49,851 bases of DNA from an uncultured Desulfobacteraceae bacterium (GTDB lineage Bacteria; Desulfobacterota; Desulfobacteria; Desulfobacterales; CAZWAE01). The DNA lies in assembly GCA_964631805.1 (NCBI GenBank), contig CAZWAE010000004.1, forward strand, positions 9,661-59,511, in the 5' to 3' direction. The translations under genes were made by a program, and so were the position numbers. Each line of letters starts with the position of its first letter. Position 1 is the first letter of the stretch. Of the stretch, positions 3,885 to 22,973 are shown in pieces. The notes below the pieces were generated by a model that was not told where the DNA came from, did no database searches, and saw only the letters and a list, made by a program, of their open reading frames with translations.

Positions 3885-5981
3885 TTGATTATAGCGATTG
3901 TTTGGTCAATTTGCGTTGCCGCGTCCCTGGTTTGGAATATTCACAATTTAGAACAGGGAAACCTTGAGGCCGCCCGGATACAGGCGAGGGCTTCTTTTCT
4001 ACAAGATGTTATATACCGTCGTTGGAATGCGGAACACGGGGGGGTCTACGTACCGGTAACCGGAAAGACACTTCCGAACCAATATTTAAACGTGGAGGAT
4101 CGTGACATCACAACTCGTTCCGGCCTTGAGCTAACTATGATAAATCCGGCCTATATGACTCGACAAGTGCATGAATTTGCGGCCAAATCATATGGTATAT
4201 ACAGCCATATCACAAGTCTTAATCCTATTAGACCTGAAAATGCACCCGACGATTGGGAGAGAAAAGCATTAGAAGCCTTTCAGAAAGGCACTCAAGAGGT
4301 CAGTTCGGTAGAAACGATTGAAGGTGAAAATTATTTTCGCCTCATGCGTTCTTTAATAACAGAAAAAGGCTGTCTCAAATGCCATGCAATACAAGGATAC
4401 AAGATTGGAGATGTTCGAGGAGGGATAAGTGTCGCGGTGCCCATGTCACCCTTTGAGATTATTGAGGACTCGCACAGACTTACTGTGTCAATTGGACATG
4501 CTTTCCTTTGGTTATTAGGGCTGTTGGGCCTTGGTTTTGGCGCCTATAGTATAGGCAGACGGCTAAGTGAGCGTGATCAGGCTCAAGAGGCGTTGCAAGA
4601 AAGTGAGGAAAAATATCGATCCATACTCGAAGATGTGGTTGATAATTCAGATGTGGGTCTTTTTATCCTCGACTCTGAATTTAGGGTTGTCTATATAAAC
4701 CAGGCGCTGGAGCTTTACTTTGATATGAAAAGGGAAGAGGTTGTAGGAAAAGATAAAAGGCGGCTTATTCAGGAGAAAATAAAACATAAATTTGATAATC
4801 CGGAAGCCTTTAGTGAAAAGGTGTTGGCAGCATATAGCCAAAACACTTATTCTGAGAGGTTTGAGTGCTACATCAAACCCGGCGGCGTGCGAAAGGGACG
4901 TTGGGTTGAACACCGAAGTCAGCCTATTAGAAGTGGACTTTACGATGGAGGTCGAATAGAACTTTACTATGACCTAAGCAAACAGAAAAAATTTGAAGAG
5001 AAACTCACTCAAGCTAAGGACGAGTGGGAGGGGACTTTCAATGCTGTTCCAGATTTAATTGCAATTTTGGATGATAAACACCAAATAGTCAAAGTTAATA
5101 AACCAATGGCGGAGAAATTAGGCGTCTCTATTGAAGAAGCGGTTGGATTAACTTGTTATAACTATGTTCATGGGACTGAGGAACCCCCAGATTATTGCCC
5201 TCATAGTCTTTTTCTCAGGGACGGAAAAGAGCATATAGCCGAAGTTTTTGAAAAACGATTGGGCGGCGACTTTTTGGTTACGGTTAGCCCACTTCCTGAC
5301 CCTAACGGTGAACCGATAAAAAGCGTTCATGTAGCACGCGATATTACCAATCGGAAGAAAGCAGAAGAGGCACTTCGAGCAAGTGAAAAAAAGTTTCGGG
5401 CCATTTTCGAACAGGCTGCGGTAGGTGTCACTCTGGCTTCGTCTAATACCGGACAGTTTTTTAAGGTTAATCAAAAATTTTGTGATATTGTTGGCTACTT
5501 CAAAGATGAACTTTTTTCAAGCAGCTTCCAGAAAATTACTCATCCTGATGATCTTCAAACTGATCTTGATTATATGCAACAGCTGATGGAAGGCACAATA
5601 AATACATTTTCGATGGAAAAGCGATATATTCGAAAAGATGGTACAATTATATGGGTAAACCTGACTGTTTCACCTATGTGGGCAATCGGTGAGCAGCCAA
5701 ATTTTCATATTGCGATCGTGGAAGATATCACGGACCGCAAGTATGCAGAAGAGGCATTATTGTTAGAAAAGAATAAACTTCAAAACGCCCTGCAGAAAAT
5801 AAAACAGTTAAGCGGCATGTTGCCTATCTGTTCTTCATGCAAGAAAATACGTGATGATAAAGGCTATTGGAAACAGATTGAAGCATATATCGAAGATCAT
5901 TCAGAAGCGGAATTTAGTCACAGCATTTGTCCGGACTGTGCAAAAATACTGTATCCTGATTTGGATATTTACGACGATTGA
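3885..5981 (+). CDS. Membrane sensor: heme-c DUF3365 (Tll0287-like) periplasmic domain, three PAS domains and a C-terminal Cys-rich domain; no kinase domain
   Basis: Two TM segments; WNAEHGGVYV, INPAYMTRQ, SLNPIRPENAPDDWE, CLKCH heme motif; PAS/PAC repeats (ITHPDD, DITDRK); C-terminal LPICSSCKKIRDDKGYW...SHSICPDC. The start may lie further upstream (frame open from 3813). Confidence 0.85.
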   Translation: MIIAIVWSICVAASLVWNIHNLEQGNLEAARIQARASFLQDVIYRRWNAEHGGVYVPVTGKTLPNQYLNVEDRDITTRSGLELTMINPAYMTRQVHEFAAKSYGIYSHITSLNPIRPENAPDDWERKALEAFQKGTQEVSSVETIEGENYFRLMRSLITEKGCLKCHAIQGYKIGDVRGGISVAVPMSPFEIIEDSHRLTVSIGHAFLWLLGLLGLGFGAYSIGRRLSERDQAQEALQESEEKYRSILEDVVDNSDVGLFILDSEFRVVYINQALELYFDMKREEVVGKDKRRLIQEKIKHKFDNPEAFSEKVLAAYSQNTYSERFECYIKPGGVRKGRWVEHRSQPIRSGLYDGGRIELYYDLSKQKKFEEKLTQAKDEWEGTFNAVPDLIAILDDKHQIVKVNKPMAEKLGVSIEEAVGLTCYNYVHGTEEPPDYCPHSLFLRDGKEHIAEVFEKRLGGDFLVTVSPLPDPNGEPIKSVHVARDITNRKKAEEALRASEKKFRAIFEQAAVGVTLASSNTGQFFKVNQKFCDIVGYFKDELFSSSFQKITHPDDLQTDLDYMQQLMEGTINTFSMEKRYIRKDGTIIWVNLTVSPMWAIGEQPNFHIAIVEDITDRKYAEEALLLEKNKLQNALQKIKQLSGMLPICSSCKKIRDDKGYWKQIEAYIEDHSEAEFSHSICPDCAKILYPDLDIYDD

Positions 5982-15089: not shown

Positions 15090-18000
15090 ATGAATTTGCA
15101 TGATCTGCTATCCCGTACACTGCTGATCGATCTGGAAACAACCCGATCCGGCAAAGTTCGTCACATCGGGGCCGTGCTGAACGGGAGCATATTTGAGAAA
15201 AAGAAACACGCTGGGTCAAAAAGGGTTTTGACGCAACTGGACCAGCTGGCTGCTAAGGCCGAGTTTGTCCTGGGCCACAACCTGCTGGGGCACGACTTCC
15301 CGATCCTTCGGGTCACCGCTCCATGGCTCAATATACTCAAAAAGCCCATCATCGATACCCTTTATCTGTCACCCCTCGCATTCCCCCAGAATCCCTACCA
15401 TCGCCTGGTAAAAAACTATAAATTGGTTCGTGAATCCATCAACCATCCCGTTGAAGATGCAGAGCTGGCGGCATCCGTGTTCAAAGATCAGTGGGAGAGC
15501 TTCAGGACCCTTGCTGAAAAGAAAGCGGTCCTGATCGAATTTTATCGCTTTTGCTTCCGGGACAGCGTTTTAAACTCATTTTCCGGCAAGGGGATTTCTT
15601 CGGTCTTTTCTATTATTGCCTCCGGTTATTTTCAAACCTCCGACCAGGCCCTTGAATGTTTTCTGACGCAGACGGAAAATCTTGTTTGCGACAGGGCGGT
15701 CAGAGAGACAATTCCCGGTATACTGGTAAAAGCGGATAAACGCCCGGCCGCTGCCTACACCATGGCGTGGCTGCAGGTGGCAGGGGGCAATTCGGTACTG
15801 CCGCCCTGGGTAAGGTATCGATTTCCGGACGTACCGGCGATCATCAAAACACTTCGGGAAAAGCCCTGCGGAGAATCTTCCTGCGACTACTGTTCGAAGA
15901 ACCACGATCCCGGTCGATCGCTGGCCCGCTTTTTCGGCTATCCATCCTTTCGCGAAAAACCTCGAACCCGCGAGGGCGAAAGCCTGCAAAGGGAGATTGT
16001 GCGAAGCTGTATGAGCGACGCTCCTGTTCTCGGGATTTTACCTACCGGTGCCGGGAAATCGCTGTGCTACCAGTTGCCGGCACTGATCCGGTATTGGCGG
16101 CGAGGCGCTCTCACCGTCGTCATCTCTCCGCTCCAGGCCTTGATGAAGGATCAGGTGGACAACCTGGTCAAAAAAACGGGGACCCTTTTCGCCGAAGCGG
16201 TCTACGGCCTCCAGACCCTGCCGGAGCGCGGGGAGGTTTTTGAGAGGATTCGTTTGGGAGACACCGCCATTCTGTACCTTTCCCCCGAGCAGCTTCGCAG
16301 CAAAGGGGTGCGGAATATACTGCGTCAAAGAGAGATCGGCTGCTGGGTGTTCGATGAAGCGCACTGCCTTTCGAAATGGGGGCACGACTTCAGGCCGGAT
16401 TACCTATACGCCGCCCGGTTCATCCGTGAATTCGCCAAAGAACAGAATATGCCGGTGCCGCCGATCTGCTGCTTCACGGCCACCGCGAAAACAAGTGTCA
16501 TCGATGAGATCGGGTCCCACTTTCACCAGGAACTCGACCAGGACCTGAGCCTTTTTGCCGGCGGTGTGGAGCGGGAAAACCTCTCTTTTGAAGTCATTCC
16601 GGTAGCAGAAGCGGAAAAGCTCGAAAAAACACACGAAATCGTCGGTGAACAGCTCAACGCAACGGACGAGCCGGCGGGTATCATCGTCTATGCCGCCACC
16701 CGGAAAACCACAGAGGAGATAAGGGATTTTCTGAACCATCAGGGCGCGATTGCCGAGGCGTTTCATGCCGGTGTCAATGCCAAAGAGAAGCGGGAGATCA
16801 TCGAAGCCTTCATCACCGGGGAGGTTCCCGTCATTTGTGCCACCAATGCCTTTGGTATGGGAATCGACAAGGAAAATATACGGCTTGTGCTGCACTATCA
16901 AATGCCGGGCTCTCTGGAAAACTATATTCAGGAAGCCGGCCGCGCCGGCCGGGACCTGAAACCGGCACGCTGTATCCTTCTGTACGATCCTCAGGATGGC
17001 AACAGGCAGTTTGGGATGCAGACTTTTTCCGAGGTGAAACGAAAGGAGATCTCGCGCATCCTGCGCGCATTGCGGCGTAAGAAGCGGAATCAATTCGGCG
17101 AGATCGTTGTTACCAGCGATGAATTGCTGCGTGATGATGCTCTGGCCGGCATGAACCGTTCAGACCATGAAAAAAACGATACGAAAGTCAAGGCCGCCGT
17201 CGCCTGGCTTGAAAGAGCGGGTTTTCTACAGCGAAACCAGAACTTGACCGAGGCCTTCCAGGGGAAACCGCTTTTTGGCACCATTGAAGAAGCTGAAATA
17301 ATGATGCGGCGTCTCAACTTGAACCGGTACACTAAAAACCGGTGGCTCACCATTCTTCGATACATCATCAACCATTTCGATGCCGGAGGGATCCGGGCGG
17401 ACAATCTTGCCGAAGCGCTGTTCCCGGAAAAGGAGTTGATGCAGGCAGAGGAGAGGAAAACGGGACTCACGGCTGGCCAGATCGTGCTGATTGATCTGCA
17501 TCGCATGGCGGATGCCGGATTGATCGACCAGGGCATTATGCTGTCCGTCACTTTTCGGCCCAGGGGCAAAAACAGGGCATTGACGGTTCTGGAACATGCG
17601 TGTGCGTTGGAAAATAAGCTGATCCGCCTGCTGGAGTCCGAAGCACCGGATGCCGATGGCGGCAATTGGGTATGGCTCAACATCCGACGCCTGAACCAGA
17701 AACTGATAAACGACGGGGAGGAAACCAACCCGGATGCACTGCGGCTGCTGATCAAAGGGATATCATATGACGGAAAAGGACTTGCCGCGTCACAGGGCAG
17801 CTTCGAGATCAGCTACATCGACCGCAACCGATACCAGGTAAAGCTCCAGCGAAGTTGGGACAGTATCAGAAAAACCATATTCCTGAGGCAGAGTGTGGCC
17901 CATGCGATTCTACGAACGCTGACCGATCTGGCCAGAAAACAGGCCGTGAAAACAGGAAAGGAGATCACCGGTGACGTGCAACTCTCATTTGCGAGCAACG

Positions 18001-20336
18001 ACCTGTCCGCGGCCATCAAGTCGGATATCACCCTGATTCCGGAAATCAAAAGGGTTTTGCCGGCAATCGACAGGGCGCTGACCTTCCTGCATGATCAGAA
18101 GGTGATCACCCTGCAGGGGGGCTTGGCCATCTTGAGGCAGGCCATGACCCTTCGGCTGTCGCCGTCCGCCAAGGGGCGCTACTATGGCAAAGGTGATTTC
18201 AAGCCGCTGGCGGTTCACTACCGGGAAAAACATCTCCAGGTCCACGTGATGATGCGGTATGCGTCAATGGCCCTCGAAAAGATCGCCTCTGCACTCACAT
18301 TGATTCTGGACTATTTCTCCCTGGGCCGGATCAAATTCATCAACAAGTATTTCGAAGCGGATAAAGATCTTTTGGATAAGGCAACCACCGCCGAATCCTA
18401 CCGAACGATCGTGGAAAATTTGAGAAATCCCGTCCAGATCTCCGCTGTGGGAAAGTCTCTGGAAGACAATATGCTCATCCTGGCAGGGCCCGGATCGGGT
18501 AAAACCACCGTGATTGTTCATCGCTGCGCCTACCTGTTGGAGGTCGAACGGGTGCCGGCGCGCCAGATCCTGGTGTTATGTTTTAACCACAGTTCAGCCG
18601 TGGTGCTCAAAAAACGGCTCGGTAATCTGGTCGGAAGGGCCGCGAGAGGGGTGACGGTTGCGACTTATCACGGTGCTGCCATGCGGTTGGCCGGCATCTC
18701 GATCAGGGATATGGCGGAATCCCATCATAAGGACAACATCGATTTCGACCGCATTGTCAGGGATGCCGTACAACTGATCAGAGGCGATAGGGAGATCCCG
18801 GGAATGGAGCCTGACGAGGTGCGGGATCGATTGCTGGCGGGTTACAGCCATATCCTGGTGGATGAGTATCAGGACATCGACGAAATTCAGTATGACCTGG
18901 TATCGGCCATCGCCGGACGGTCGCTTGAAGAGGAAGAGGGGCGCCTGACCATTATGGCCGTAGGGGACGACGATCAAAACATTTATACCTTCAGGGGAGC
19001 CAATGTTCGTTTTATCCGGCAATTTCAGGAAGACTATCTGACGCAGGTTGTTTACCTGGTTGAGAACTATCGTTCCAGCAAACATATCATTACCGCTGCC
19101 AACGGGTTGATAGACGCCAACCGGGACAGAATGAAAGGGGGACACCCCATCTGCATCAACCGCGAGCGGGAGTCCAGTTTACCCGGTGGCAGATGGGAAG
19201 ACTGCGATCCGGTGAGCAAAGGATGTGTTCAAATCGTTTCCGTCAGGGATCTGTCCCACCAGGCCGGCTTCGTAAAGAGTGAAATCGATCGTATACGGCA
19301 GATCGCCCCCAACACCAAATGGACTGAATTCGCTGTCCTATCACGAACCAAAGCCCCACTGGCGGCCGTCAGGGCAGCATTGGAAAATGCAGGATACCCG
19401 CTTAGGATAACGTTGAGTAAAGGATTCCCCCTTCACCGGGTGCGGGAGATCCGGATGACCCTCAACTGGCTTATGGAAAGAGAAAAAGAGAATTCACGTG
19501 CGTCCGGTTTGCAGGCGGGCCTCATGGAGATTCGGGGTGAGCTGGAATCAAATATCTGGTGGCATATGATCGACATGTTTTGGGATCATTACCGCGATGA
19601 AACGGCCGATAGTCTGCTTCCTGTGTGCCGGGTGATAGATCATTTATTTGAATTCATAGCGGAACAACGCAGGGAAAAGGTGCTGGGGCATGGAATATTC
19701 CTGACCACCATTCACTCGGCCAAAGGGATGGAATTTCCACATGTTTTTATCCTGGACGGAGATTGGTGCCATCCTGCGGGTAAGGCCCGGTGGGAGGAGG
19801 AGCGGCGGATTCTGTATGTGGGTATGACACGAGCCGAAGAAACCCTTTGTTTATTAAAAATTCCGGGCAGACCCAACCCCTTTTTGAAGGAAATAAAGGG
19901 CGGCTGTTCGATTCCGTTGACCTATCGGGGCGTCGTGGAGACCGGTGAGCACAGTGGGAAGAGGTATGAGCTGCTGGGTCTAAACGAGATCTATCTGGAT
20001 TATGCCGGAAAATTCCCAGCGGCGGATCCCATTCACCACCGGTTAGCCGCGCTGGAAACCGGGCAACGTGTTTCCTTCTGCCAAAACAACTCAAAAACGG
20101 AAATCAACGATGCCGAAGGCAATTGCCTGGCACGGCTGTCAGCTGAAGGGACAAGCAAATGGCGTAACCGGCTGGATCGAATACTGGAAGTGAGAGTCGT
20201 TGCCATGTTGCAGCGCGACCGGGAAGATCCTGATGAAAATTTCCAGAAATGGATCCAGGCAGAGCAATGGGAACTTCCCATACTCGAAGTGGTATCTGCG
20301 GGAGACGATCAATCTTTTGACAGGAACCGTGTATAG
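15090..20336 (+). CDS. Exonuclease-like domain + RecQ (SF2) helicase + UvrD/Rep (SF1) helicase fusion
   Basis: N-terminal LIDLET/GHNLLGHD/DTLYLS/HPVEDA; RecQ motifs LPTGAGKSLCYQLP, DEAHCLSKWGHDFRPDY, ATNAFGMGIDK, QEAGRAGRD; UvrD motifs AGPGSGKT, VDEYQD, VGDDDQNIY, ENYRS, TIHSAKGMEF, YVGMTRA. Confidence 0.92.
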   Translation: MNLHDLLSRTLLIDLETTRSGKVRHIGAVLNGSIFEKKKHAGSKRVLTQLDQLAAKAEFVLGHNLLGHDFPILRVTAPWLNILKKPIIDTLYLSPLAFPQNPYHRLVKNYKLVRESINHPVEDAELAASVFKDQWESFRTLAEKKAVLIEFYRFCFRDSVLNSFSGKGISSVFSIIASGYFQTSDQALECFLTQTENLVCDRAVRETIPGILVKADKRPAAAYTMAWLQVAGGNSVLPPWVRYRFPDVPAIIKTLREKPCGESSCDYCSKNHDPGRSLARFFGYPSFREKPRTREGESLQREIVRSCMSDAPVLGILPTGAGKSLCYQLPALIRYWRRGALTVVISPLQALMKDQVDNLVKKTGTLFAEAVYGLQTLPERGEVFERIRLGDTAILYLSPEQLRSKGVRNILRQREIGCWVFDEAHCLSKWGHDFRPDYLYAARFIREFAKEQNMPVPPICCFTATAKTSVIDEIGSHFHQELDQDLSLFAGGVERENLSFEVIPVAEAEKLEKTHEIVGEQLNATDEPAGIIVYAATRKTTEEIRDFLNHQGAIAEAFHAGVNAKEKREIIEAFITGEVPVICATNAFGMGIDKENIRLVLHYQMPGSLENYIQEAGRAGRDLKPARCILLYDPQDGNRQFGMQTFSEVKRKEISRILRALRRKKRNQFGEIVVTSDELLRDDALAGMNRSDHEKNDTKVKAAVAWLERAGFLQRNQNLTEAFQGKPLFGTIEEAEIMMRRLNLNRYTKNRWLTILRYIINHFDAGGIRADNLAEALFPEKELMQAEERKTGLTAGQIVLIDLHRMADAGLIDQGIMLSVTFRPRGKNRALTVLEHACALENKLIRLLESEAPDADGGNWVWLNIRRLNQKLINDGEETNPDALRLLIKGISYDGKGLAASQGSFEISYIDRNRYQVKLQRSWDSIRKTIFLRQSVAHAILRTLTDLARKQAVKTGKEITGDVQLSFASNDLSAAIKSDITLIPEIKRVLPAIDRALTFLHDQKVITLQGGLAILRQAMTLRLSPSAKGRYYGKGDFKPLAVHYREKHLQVHVMMRYASMALEKIASALTLILDYFSLGRIKFINKYFEADKDLLDKATTAESYRTIVENLRNPVQISAVGKSLEDNMLILAGPGSGKTTVIVHRCAYLLEVERVPARQILVLCFNHSSAVVLKKRLGNLVGRAARGVTVATYHGAAMRLAGISIRDMAESHHKDNIDFDRIVRDAVQLIRGDREIPGMEPDEVRDRLLAGYSHILVDEYQDIDEIQYDLVSAIAGRSLEEEEGRLTIMAVGDDDQNIYTFRGANVRFIRQFQEDYLTQVVYLVENYRSSKHIITAANGLIDANRDRMKGGHPICINRERESSLPGGRWEDCDPVSKGCVQIVSVRDLSHQAGFVKSEIDRIRQIAPNTKWTEFAVLSRTKAPLAAVRAALENAGYPLRITLSKGFPLHRVREIRMTLNWLMEREKENSRASGLQAGLMEIRGELESNIWWHMIDMFWDHYRDETADSLLPVCRVIDHLFEFIAEQRREKVLGHGIFLTTIHSAKGMEFPHVFILDGDWCHPAGKARWEEERRILYVGMTRAEETLCLLKIPGRPNPFLKEIKGGCSIPLTYRGVVETGEHSGKRYELLGLNEIYLDYAGKFPAADPIHHRLAALETGQRVSFCQNNSKTEINDAEGNCLARLSAEGTSKWRNRLDRILEVRVVAMLQRDREDPDENFQKWIQAEQWELPILEVVSAGDDQSFDRNRV

Positions 20337-20364
20337 GAAAATCACGCCAATCGTGTCCGGGAAT

Positions 20365-20819
20365 TTAAATCTGGCGGTGGCAGCTATGTTTTCCCGGTTG
20401 TCATTCACGCCCGGTATCACCGGCATACGTGCCTGGAGATGCTTTGTTTCTTTGGACAGCGTGATAAAGTTTTCCCGGATACGACCATTTCCCATCCCGA
20501 CGAACCTTATGTGCGCGTCGTTGTCCATCACCTTCAGGTCGTAAAAAAACAAGGTCCAGATGCGGCAGGAGATTTTTCATCTGCTGCCAGGCAAAAAAAC
20601 CGCAGGTTTCAATATTCACGTGAATATGTCTGTTTTTCAACTCAGGCAGAGATGTTGGTAAAATGCGATTTCAGGCTTTTTTCCCCACGACTCGGGGTTC
20701 TGGCACCACGCACAGCGCAACGGACATCCCTTGAAAAATACCGTCGTCCTGATCCCCGGTCCGTCATGCAGTGAAAATCTCTGGATATCAGATATGACGG
20801 CTTTTTCGGTTTTAGACAT
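20365..20819 (-). pseudogene. Glycyl-radical enzyme activating protein (radical SAM) relic
   Basis: Three frames give [34 protein letters not shown] / IHVNIETCG / YDLKVMD...RMPVIPGVND. The central ferredoxin and GGEP region is deleted and the 3' end is truncated. Confidence 0.85.
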
Positions 20820-20901
20820 CCTGAACCCTGCGGATTGCACCTGTAAATTTTGTTGGATAAGGGAACCGGATCAAACCTTTTGTGCCGATCCGCATGGACG
20901 A

Positions 20902-21648: not shown

Positions 21649-21809
21649 AGAAACACAGATTTAGATTTAGGGGAAAATGGGATCGGGCCGCGTCATGTGA
21701 TAGATGATAGGGACATTGTGCTAAAAAGCAAGCGGTTTTGCAATCAGGATATCTCCCGATTGGGTTGATGTTCATTGGATCAACCTGCACATTTTTTCAG
21801 GTTGATTGA

Positions 21810-21886
21810 TTCGATAATTTCGATTAATATAGATAAAGGATCGTTTTCAACGATTTATTTAGATACAATTCATCGCTATGAACGAT
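21810..21886. promoter_or_regulatory. Three LysR-type boxes (A/T)TCG-N7-CGAT
   Basis: TTCG-ATAATTT-CGAT 21810-21824, ATCG-TTTTCAA-CGAT 21840-21854, ATCG-CTATGAA-CGAT 21872-21886; each contains T-N11-A. Confidence 0.65.
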
Positions 21887-21898
21887 AGGAGGGGGGTA

Positions 21899-22786
21899 GT
21901 GGAATTCAGACAGCTCAGAACATTTCGCGTGGTTGCGGACCAGCTCAGCTTTACCAAGGCCGCCAAGCAGCTTTACATGGCCCAGTCCTCCATCTCCGCG
22001 CAGATCCGCGCCCTGGAGGAGGAACTCGACCTGAAGCTGTTCGACCGCATTGGCAGAAGGGTGCTCATTACAGATGCAGGTATGAAGCTCTATGAATACG
22101 CCCGGAGGATCCAGGAGATGACCGATGAGATCCACTCTGAGGTGACCGGAGAGAAGAATGTTCGCGGTGCCTTGACGGTCCGGGTACCCGAAACCCTGGC
22201 CACCCTGCATATGCCCGAGGTGGTGGAGCGATTTCACCGGGACAACCCACGCGTGAAACTGAGTCTCGTCAATTGCTCGGATCTTCAGCTTAGGGAGGAA
22301 CTCAATACCGGACGGATCGACCTGGCTTTTCTGATGACCGATTCTATTCATTTCAAGGAAGTCAATGTCCGGATGCTCAAAACCGAGATCCTGATTTTCA
22401 TTTCCGGTCTCCGGCATGAACTGACCTGTTTGAAAAAAATGACCATGGGGGATCTGGAGGGTCATACGGCGCTGCTTCCCAAAAGCGATTGAAGCTACCG
22501 CCGGGCATTCGAGCGGTCGCTCGAAGAGGAAGGCGTTTCGATCCGCAAACTCGAGTTCTCCAGCATCAACAGCCTGCGACGCTGTCTGAAAAGGGGCATG
22601 GGTTTTACCGTTTGTCCCCTTCGCTCGGTTCAGCAGGAGCTGGATGAGGGCAGCCTTACCAGGCTCGACTGGAGGGGTCCGGAATTAGAGACATCCGTCA
22701 TCATGATTTGGCACGCGGAAAAGTGGTGTTCCCCTTTGCTCAGGCATTTCATGTCCCTGTGCGAAACCGTTATGGCGGAGGGGTAG
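21899..22786 (+). CDS. LysR family transcriptional regulator with in-frame TGA (probable selenocysteine, residue 198)
   Basis: GTG start after AGGAGG; LysR HTH FRQLRTF...SFTKAAKQLYMAQSSISAQIRALEEEL. The frame continues through TGA 22490-22492 (PKSD*SYRRAFE) into the 22598..22786 ORF, giving 295 aa. A hairpin follows the TGA. Confidence 0.8.
22508..22525 (+). other. Candidate bacterial SECIS hairpin TTCGAGC-GGTC-GCTCGAA
   Basis: Perfect 7-bp stem with a G-initiated apical loop beginning 23 nt after the in-frame UGA. Confidence 0.65.
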
Positions 22787-22817
22787 GTGCTTGGCTGTGG
22801 GAATTAAATAGCTTTTG

Positions 22818-22973
22818 ATGGGTGCCCGGCCCGGGGAGCGCAACGAGCCGGCGTATCTGGTCACCGCCATCCGGGCCATTGCGGAGATCAAGGATTTGAA
22901 CGTTGAAACGGTGGTTTCCCAGATCAGCCGGAACACCGCAAAGTTATATGGGATTAAACAGGAGACAACATGA
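22818..22973 (+). pseudogene. 3' remnant of a TatD-family hydrolase
   Basis: Translates to GERNEPAYLVTAIRAIAEIKDLNVETVVSQISRNTAKLYG, the TatD C-terminal signature. Its stop overlaps the next ATG (ATGA). Confidence 0.72.

Follow-up and report, generated by a model that had tools for sequence, protein, structure and literature searches.

The window analyzed here, a 49,851-nucleotide stretch of DNA from an uncultured Desulfobacteraceae bacterium (contig CAZWAE010000004.1 of GenBank assembly GCA_964631805.1), contains a gene for a LysR-type transcriptional regulator (LTTR) whose reading frame runs through an internal TGA codon. The gene opens with a GTG codon at 21899, closes with a TAG codon at 22784-22786, and holds one in-frame stop between them, the TGA at 22490-22492. 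A first-pass annotation, made from the sequence alone, had claimed that the two LysR open reading frame (ORF) fragments at this locus are a single frame broken only by this codon, and its coordinates are confirmed. It had also predicted that read-through would give a normal LysR protein of 295 amino acids; the read-through product matches both Pfam domains, and the LysR_substrate domain continues without a break across the TGA. With an HTH_1 domain, a LysR_substrate domain, and a length of about 300 residues, the product has the composition of an LTTR (Table 1). The codon in question specifies residue 198, in the context LLPKSD-U-SYRRAFERSLEE, where U denotes selenocysteine (Sec). The same annotation had placed a hairpin, TTCGAGC-GGTC-GCTCGAA, downstream of the TGA; it is indeed found at 22508-22525, its first loop G (22515) being the 23rd base after the TGA, and it is a candidate selenocysteine insertion sequence (SECIS). 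We conclude that the gene is not broken and that its internal TGA is very probably a codon for selenocysteine, at the likely sensing position of the regulator.

Table 1. Features of the Sec-LysR locus (positions in the window)
Feature	Position	Strand	Basis or remarks
LysR-type regulator gene	21899..22786	+	295 codons, one in-frame TGA, then TAG; homologues begin MEFRQL here
Ribosome-binding site GGAGG	21888..21892	+	6 nt before GTG
HTH_1 DNA-binding domain, residues 3-61	21905..22081	+	Pfam PF00126, 77.3 bits
LysR_substrate effector domain, residues 88-291	22160..22771	+	Pfam PF03466, 132.5 bits, profile positions 4-207/209
Cys126 codon, candidate partner of Sec198	22274..22276	+	Invariant in 44/44 aligned sequences
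TGA, predicted to be read as selenocysteine (U198)	22490..22492	+	TGA in 58/80 loci, TGC/TGT in 22/80; aligns with OxyR C199
Putative bacterial SECIS core, 7-bp stem, loop GGUC (22515-22518)	22508..22525	+	22 nt after UGA
Predicted conserved operator ATCG-N7-CGAT-TTATTT-(C/A)GAT-N8-CATCG, LysR-type T-N11-A box	21834..21883	+	Ends 15 nt before start codon
Upstream repeat TTCGATAATTTCGATTAATA on the divergent-gene side; probable second LysR binding site (activation site), predicted	21810..21829	.	Sequence

Homologous loci were drawn from a 301-genome even sample of the order, from a set with one genome per GTDB species, and from JGI metagenome contigs, 89 loci in all (L020-L108); the family-level genome sample contained only the window's own genome, and the comparison was widened to the order. 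Codon 198 was tallied by tblastn over all 89 loci, nine of which lacked coverage of the codon (eight without a match and one not covered). Among the remaining 80 the column reads TGA in 58, TGC in 21, TGT in 1, and no other codon in any. The first-pass annotation had proposed that cysteine and TGA would alternate at this site and that TGA would recur in other genomes, and both proposals hold: TGA occupies this codon, followed by the hairpin, in 57 loci other than that of the window, and the site is cysteine in all 22 non-TGA loci, down to ~32% local identity, with neither tryptophan nor arginine in any of them. Within the order sample, a match at 62-100% identity occurs in seven genomes of six families, the window's own among them, each with exactly one TGA; in the set with one genome per GTDB species, TGA carriers include Desulfobacteraceae, Desulfatitalea, Desulfobacterium, and two SAR324 metagenome-assembled genomes. 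A protein search over 5.8 billion clusters is consistent with this pattern. Among the best 120 homologous clusters, 108 end in ...[K/R/N/T][T/S/A]D, one codon before the TGA, and 103 of these 108 shortened gene calls are exactly 197 residues long; the full-length homologues in the same best 120, 49-70% identical, have cysteine in 10 of 10 cases (D-C-S/R-Y-R-K), as do both partial ones. More than 100 database entries of the family are thus shortened 197-residue calls, which means that annotation pipelines systematically miss it. A misread TGC or TGT, raised at the outset as a possible source of the TGA, is not supported by the assemblies of three DNA runs from two studies (X1, X2, and X5), whose contigs all retain TGA; X1 and X2 may be the window's source sample.

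Purifying selection acts on the reading frame beyond the TGA. The ratio of nonsynonymous to synonymous differences (pN/pS) is 0.38 for codons 212-290 versus 0.26 for codons 2-197 (630 pairs, 36 Sec-form genes), with synonymous sites near saturation in this comparison. Both this analysis and a maximum-likelihood tree were based on 44 full-length distinct proteins (36 Sec and 8 Cys forms), leaving out partial loci as well as L043, for which no full-length frame could be identified. The tree places 38 proteins (36 Sec and 2 Cys) in a clade on a long branch, apart from six distant Cys forms. Each of the clade's two Cys rows, L068 and L085, has a place of its own among the Sec forms, behind starred branches, which requires three changes; both look like reversions from Sec to Cys. 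With the root between the two groups, a position given by midpoint rooting only, the history would comprise one gain of Sec from Cys followed by two reversions.

The hairpin downstream of the TGA is conserved in structure as well as in position. Counts were made on 46 distinct Sec windows from a set defined by a motif regular expression, from which L096 was dropped as too short; L051, L061, and L094 lie outside that set, as do about a dozen distant Cys loci. All seven stem pairs form in 44 of the 46 and six of the seven in the other two, and 99.7% of 308 cells are paired versus 31-46% when the partner strand is slid by one to three columns. The loop is GGUC in 39, AGUU in 4, and GGUU in 3, all of the form N-G-U-N with the G-U at loop positions 2-3 fixed in 46 of 46. 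Stem changes include ten G-C to G-U wobbles and several others, another wobble (AU to GU) in L051, and compensatory changes from CG to UA in L024 and L062 and from UA to AU in L061 and L094. Codon choice within the stem is invariant, with a synonymous entropy of zero (GAG for 46 of 46 Glu, CGG for 42 of 42 Arg, TCG for 39 of 39 Ser), compared with 1.8-2.2 bits for nearby Arg and Leu codons in the same sequences. Synonymous variation at the stem codons reappears in the distant Cys forms, which form 3-4 of the 7 pairs (seven forms in the motif-defined set) or 2-5 in the wider tblastn set. The Cys forms L068 and L085, which fall within the Sec clade, have retained the stem and lost the loop G-U (GGAC and GATC). 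Published bacterial SECIS (bSECIS) criteria specify a loop of 3-9 nt, a stem of 4-16 bp, a G in the first two loop positions, a spacing of 16-37 nt, and a minimum free energy of at most -7.5 kcal/mol (PMC13188914, section 5). The window hairpin falls within every one of these ranges, with its 4-nt GGUC loop, 7-bp stem, 22-nt spacing, and a minimum free energy of -9.8 kcal/mol for the 28-nt core. Two formate dehydrogenase alpha (fdhA) genes in the same genome (G000:C260:6-440 and G000:C18:7716-8483) provide an internal SECIS control, each with a canonical CARL-TGA-HS site and a GGUCU-loop hairpin, and given such similar loops a single SelB could plausibly read all three elements. That the hairpin at 22508-22525 behaves as a SECIS under constraint at the RNA level is strongly supported by these sequence comparisons.

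The genome encodes most of what Sec insertion would need. Hits to selA (535.9 bits), selB (367.5 bits), and selD (354.1 bits) are all above their cut-offs, and together with the two fdhA genes they answer most of the check on Sec machinery that the first-pass annotation had proposed; tRNA-Sec (selC), also named there, is taken up below. Each of the five other TGA-form genomes tested has SelA and a 94-nt tRNA-Sec (72-76 bits), and the anticodon in the three tRNA-Sec genes examined with ARAGORN is TCA.

Alignment with OxyR supports the placement of Sec198 at the position of the OxyR peroxidatic cysteine. An hhalign comparison of the family with Escherichia coli OxyR (probability 99.85%, identity 26%) pairs U198 with C199, as had been proposed at first pass, T99 with T100, D128 with T129, and Ser207 with C208. 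We take T100, T129, and C199 to line the peroxide pocket of OxyR. C126, two residues before the position aligned with T129, and C/U198 are the only invariant Cys columns in the 44 sequences, distant Cys forms included; C229 is at least 90% conserved in the same set. An AlphaFold2 model (mean predicted local distance difference test score, pLDDT, 87.6) has the LTTR fold; in it, residue 126 comes right at the end of strand 119-125, and the loop preceding helix 200-210 contains residue 198. Foldseek matches this model to the full-length LTTRs CcmR, ACIAD0746, OxyR, CbnR, and BenM in the PDB (E 1e-27 to 1e-19), a ranking that does not single out OxyR; in a phmmer search of the PDB, generic LTTRs appear at 1e-5 and nothing at 1e-20. 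Two assignments to known families were rejected. The protein is not an OxyR orthologue (NF008361, 100.6 bits against a cut-off of 329), nor is it a member of LysR_Sec_metab/HrsM (NF040786, 145.6 bits against a cut-off of 250). Among NCBIfam models the latter gives the highest score, with other LysR families close behind, and no model dedicated to the Sec-LysR family is among the matches.

Nearly all loci, Cys forms included, have upstream of the gene a motif ATCGtGTCcAACGATTTATTTCGAT-N8-CATCG whose end is about 15 nt from the start codon, and the window's own site scores 56.1 bits against a position weight matrix built from 35 distinct upstream sites. Strings resembling (T)TCG-N-TAATT-N-CGATTAATA were seen by eye at the same place as the upstream repeat in most upstream regions. 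Across the family the arrangement is that of LTTRs, a T-N11-A operator, predicted from sequence, between the regulator and a divergent gene. The usual partner is an apparently monocistronic C_GCAxxG_C_C gene (PF09719), present in 24 of the 42 Sec loci with at least 600 nt of upstream sequence. In seven of the 42 the divergent gene belongs instead to the MerB family (PF03243, 65.8 bits), and its frame contains two TGA codons. In four loci the Sec-LysR gene is directly followed by a ferritin/rubrerythrin-like gene, and among nine Cys-form loci inspected the partner is C_GCAxxG_C_C in five and a CMD/AhpD-like gene in two (L027 and L033).

Other features of these neighborhoods were recorded alongside. 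The double-TGA MerB gene is exemplified by L021:566-1273 (-), with the same arrangement in L025, L050, L057, L074, L077, and L093; its TGA contexts are ...FTP-U-GFD... and ...SFA-U-GRMN..., presumably the two catalytic Cys positions of MerB. Against SaoL, the catalogued family with a single Sec, the protein reaches 43.8 bits where the cut-off is 140, and it may represent a distinct double-Sec MerB type. The window's own genome has a MerB-like gene (G000:C126:659-1039, L118) on another contig, with no operator nearby. Seven further Sec loci of the 42 have upstream a conserved ORF of about 183 residues with a GWRFC motif and no Pfam or NCBIfam match (L069:163-711 (-), and similar ORFs in L024, L070, L073, L075, L076, and L078). 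In the window itself, a short Cys-rich opening MNINPIGRYPDCKTACFLAQC... lies at 21649-21790 (-), where the partner gene starts in relatives, and runs into a GT2 gene in another frame; it is probably all that remains of a partner gene since lost, or else spurious. L080, a relative 89% identical, has GT2 and NUDIX genes upstream. Downstream, both the window and L080 carry TatD, a GDSL hydrolase, and an Old-Yellow-Enzyme flavin oxidoreductase. TatD is intact in L080 (277 residues, 4064-4897), and at the same place the window has a 52-residue ORF at 22815-22973 (+) whose match to the TatD_DNase profile (27.1 bits) is confined to the final 41 positions, indicating that the window has lost most of this gene. 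Farther away, three overlapping ORFs at 20139-20840 (-) (20637-20840, 20401-20640, and 20139-20552) resemble one radical-SAM activating-enzyme gene, with a Fer4_12 match in the 20637-20840 piece; the split gene is a frameshifted pseudogene or an assembly error. A 1748-residue ORF at 15090-20336 (+) unites DEAD/Helicase_C and UvrD-helicase/UvrD_C domains.

From this evidence we consider it highly likely that the gene encodes a full-length LysR regulator in which the UGA at 22490-22492 is decoded as Sec by SelB and Sec-tRNA under the direction of the hairpin, with Sec198 as the most likely sensor. At the level of sequence comparison, the recoding signature, the family-wide Cys/Sec pair, the SECIS constraint, the conserved operator, and the gene pairing can be regarded as established; that selenium is actually inserted at codon 198 is what we infer from them. 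Sec198 replaces an otherwise invariant Cys at the OxyR C199 position, in the effector cleft, and by analogy its selenol is therefore most likely the sensing residue. In the mechanism that we propose, SelB and Sec-tRNA would insert Sec at the UGA, guided by the SECIS hairpin, and an oxidant or some other thiophilic agent would then react with the selenol, which might close a Se-S bond to its putative partner, the invariant Cys126. This reaction would alter the conformation of the regulator bound at the operator just upstream of its own gene. The regulator would thereby control the divergent Cys-rich redox-type gene that most relatives have, C_GCAxxG_C_C or, in some, an AhpD-like or MerB-like gene.

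Several results weigh against this interpretation. ARAGORN finds 24 tRNA genes in the window's own assembly (86% complete, 391 contigs) and no tRNA-Sec among them. The best RF01852 match there, at 44.2 bits (below the 47-bit threshold), is a tRNA-Trp; the other best matches proved to be tRNA-Ser, tRNA-Glu, and tRNA-Arg, and blastn with the tRNA-Sec genes of three relatives returned only 15-nt chance matches. Since five of five relatives have tRNA-Sec and the assembly is incomplete, we take this miss to be an assembly gap. Folded as a single sequence, the 61 nt after the UGA are no more stable than shuffled controls (z = -0.15, 73 of 200 shuffles equal); the hairpin becomes significant only when loci are compared. 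The stem offers little covariation, with double changes at one pair in the formal count and 13 of 500 shuffles reaching the score, and the hairpin overlaps the coding of a conserved peptide, FERSLE; the constraint on synonymous sites is therefore the stronger argument. OxyR C208 has no equivalent in the family, where a serine aligns with it, and the OxyR disulfide mechanism is not directly transferable. At the level of gene regulation, the window has a GT2 gene upstream in place of the usual divergent partner, no PF09719 gene was found in its 86%-complete genome, and a scan of the assembly with the operator matrix returned no second site above 18 bits. The RNA run X10 yielded a single 240-nt contig covering 22522-22761 at ~96% identity (10 differences), which stops short of the UGA and may come from a relative or from contaminating DNA.

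A fuller form of this interpretation would make the protein the first Sec transcription factor, an OxyR-like selenol switch that responds to peroxide or other thiophiles and is resolved by a selenenylsulfide with Cys126 across the effector subdomains, whose dependence on Sec-tRNA would tie the response to selenium supply; we put it forward tentatively, as possible rather than probable. The AhpD-like, ferritin/rubrerythrin-like, and C_GCAxxG_C_C partners lean towards an oxidant or thiol-stress signal. Alternatively, Sec198 and Cys126 of the same selenoprotein regulator might bind a soft metal or an organometal across the cleft without oxidation of the selenol, the signal being Hg(II), methylmercury, or possibly arsenic or another thiophile; we consider this unlikely if worth keeping in mind. 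An invariant Cys paired with Sec would suit a metal-binding site, the C_GCAxxG_C_C partner is Cys-rich, and the MerB homologue of seven loci has TGA both in its U-x-x-D motif and at a second site, presumably the two catalytic Cys positions. Yet these MerB-like partners are fewer than the 24 C_GCAxxG_C_C ones, the CMD/AhpD-like and ferritin/rubrerythrin-like partners point to oxidant defense, the genome's own MerB-like gene stands apart from any operator, and among loci with flanks listed no mer transport or reductase genes were seen.

The UGA could also serve mainly as a selenium gauge, giving the full-length protein when selenium is present and a 197-residue product of different activity when it is absent, so that expression of the targets would track the supply of selenium. 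This is compatible with a sensing role, and as the main function we consider it quite unlikely. The 197-residue product would keep the helix-turn-helix domain, the linker helix, and part of the effector domain, and some partners are selenoproteins (the MerB-like protein with its two TGA codons) or belong to a '(seleno)protein' family (TIGR01909). The best NCBIfam match of the regulator is moreover to the selenium-metabolism LysR family, but well below the cut-off, as given above. The inspected C_GCAxxG_C_C partners are however Cys forms, and no sel genes adjoin the regulator in loci with flanks listed. Above all, a gauge alone would not account for the invariant Cys of the non-Sec relatives, 22 of 22 at local identities reaching down to ~32%, which implies that the residue matters chemically, beyond stop or go.

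Reading of the UGA as Cys or Trp, through near-cognate or miscoded decoding, is very improbable. Cys is the ancestral residue, which would favor it, but the SelB-type hairpin has the GGUC loop of the genome's own fdhA SECIS elements, Sec machinery accompanies the TGA form in five of five other genomes tested (with selA, selB, and selD in this one), and no homologue has Trp at codon 198. That the TGA is a true stop, leaving a pseudogene or two genes (a 197-residue protein and an unrelated downstream ORF), agrees with the annotation of 197-residue fragments as LysR family regulators by gene callers and NCBI and with the tRNA-Sec missing from the assembly, yet it is scarcely credible when the same codon is TGA in 58 loci from at least six families of the order and SAR324, purifying selection acts on the downstream frame, which completes a Pfam domain, the hairpin is under RNA-level constraint, and a pseudogene would not retain one stop alone across 58-89% identity.

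If the Sec-sensor interpretation is true, selenium biology would come to include the perception of signals, through a DNA-binding regulator whose sensing residue is Sec, and such a regulator could provide strict anaerobes with a faster, more sensitive stress sensor that is proof against over-oxidation. It would add a new selenoprotein family together with a regulon of C_GCAxxG_C_C, AhpD-like, and double-Sec MerB-like genes, and would offer a first regulatory handle on the uncharacterized C_GCAxxG_C_C family. The natural Sec/Cys pair, two apparent reversions included, offers a handle on what selenium buys a redox or metal sensor.

Selenoprotein catalogues list families of other kinds. The 87 families of the 2022 catalogue (PMC9312934, Table 1) are enzymes, redox carriers, transporters, and unknowns, with no LysR or HTH regulator, and the same kinds make up the 119 families and subfamilies of the 2026 catalogue (PMC13188914, Table 1), again with no LysR or HTH regulator. 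In the passages of PMC9312934 that describe it, LysR_Se/HrsM is given as a selenium-related regulator and is not placed among the selenoproteins. Neither 'LysR' nor 'transcriptional regulator' occurs in the main text of deep-Sep, of BSepDB, or of the 2022 preprint that describes eight new families; their supplements could name such a family. No LysR selenoprotein appears in the main texts of PMC13188914, PMC12013277, PMC13326102, bioRxiv 10.1101/2022.07.06.499078, PMC1914089, or PMC8318568. Full-text literature searches returned no LysR selenoprotein either. The family described here appears to be a selenoprotein family not yet catalogued, a Sec version of an LTTR with a Cys sensor, and to be widespread in marine sulfate-reducing bacteria and their relatives. 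To our knowledge, no selenocysteine-containing transcription factor has been known before.

Among characterized regulators the closest parallel is OxyR (E. coli b3961; PDB 1I69/1I6A, 4X6G, and 6G1D), with which the window protein has in common the LTTR fold, the column of the reactive chalcogen (U198 for C199), and the T100 position, as well as a link to genes for Cys-based redox proteins. It differs from OxyR in having Sec for Cys, in the serine at C208 with the invariant C126 instead, in its operator, and in its hosts, which are anaerobic Desulfobacterales and SAR324. LysR_Se/HrsM (NF040786) is likewise a LysR family regulator tied to selenium biology. With catalogued selenoproteins such as FdhA and the Sec forms of C_GCAxxG_C_C, the family has in common the Sec/Cys pair, a bSECIS within the ORF, and shortened database entries. 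Its nearest counterparts are the Cys-form homologues (Salidesulfovibrio onnuriiensis P0020; loci L027-L047, L068, and L085), which differ in having TGC or TGT rather than TGA and, in the distant ones, in having no hairpin. They nonetheless have the same architecture, the same C126, a cysteine at position 198, and the same operator motif as the Sec forms, and five of the nine loci inspected have the C_GCAxxG_C_C partner too.

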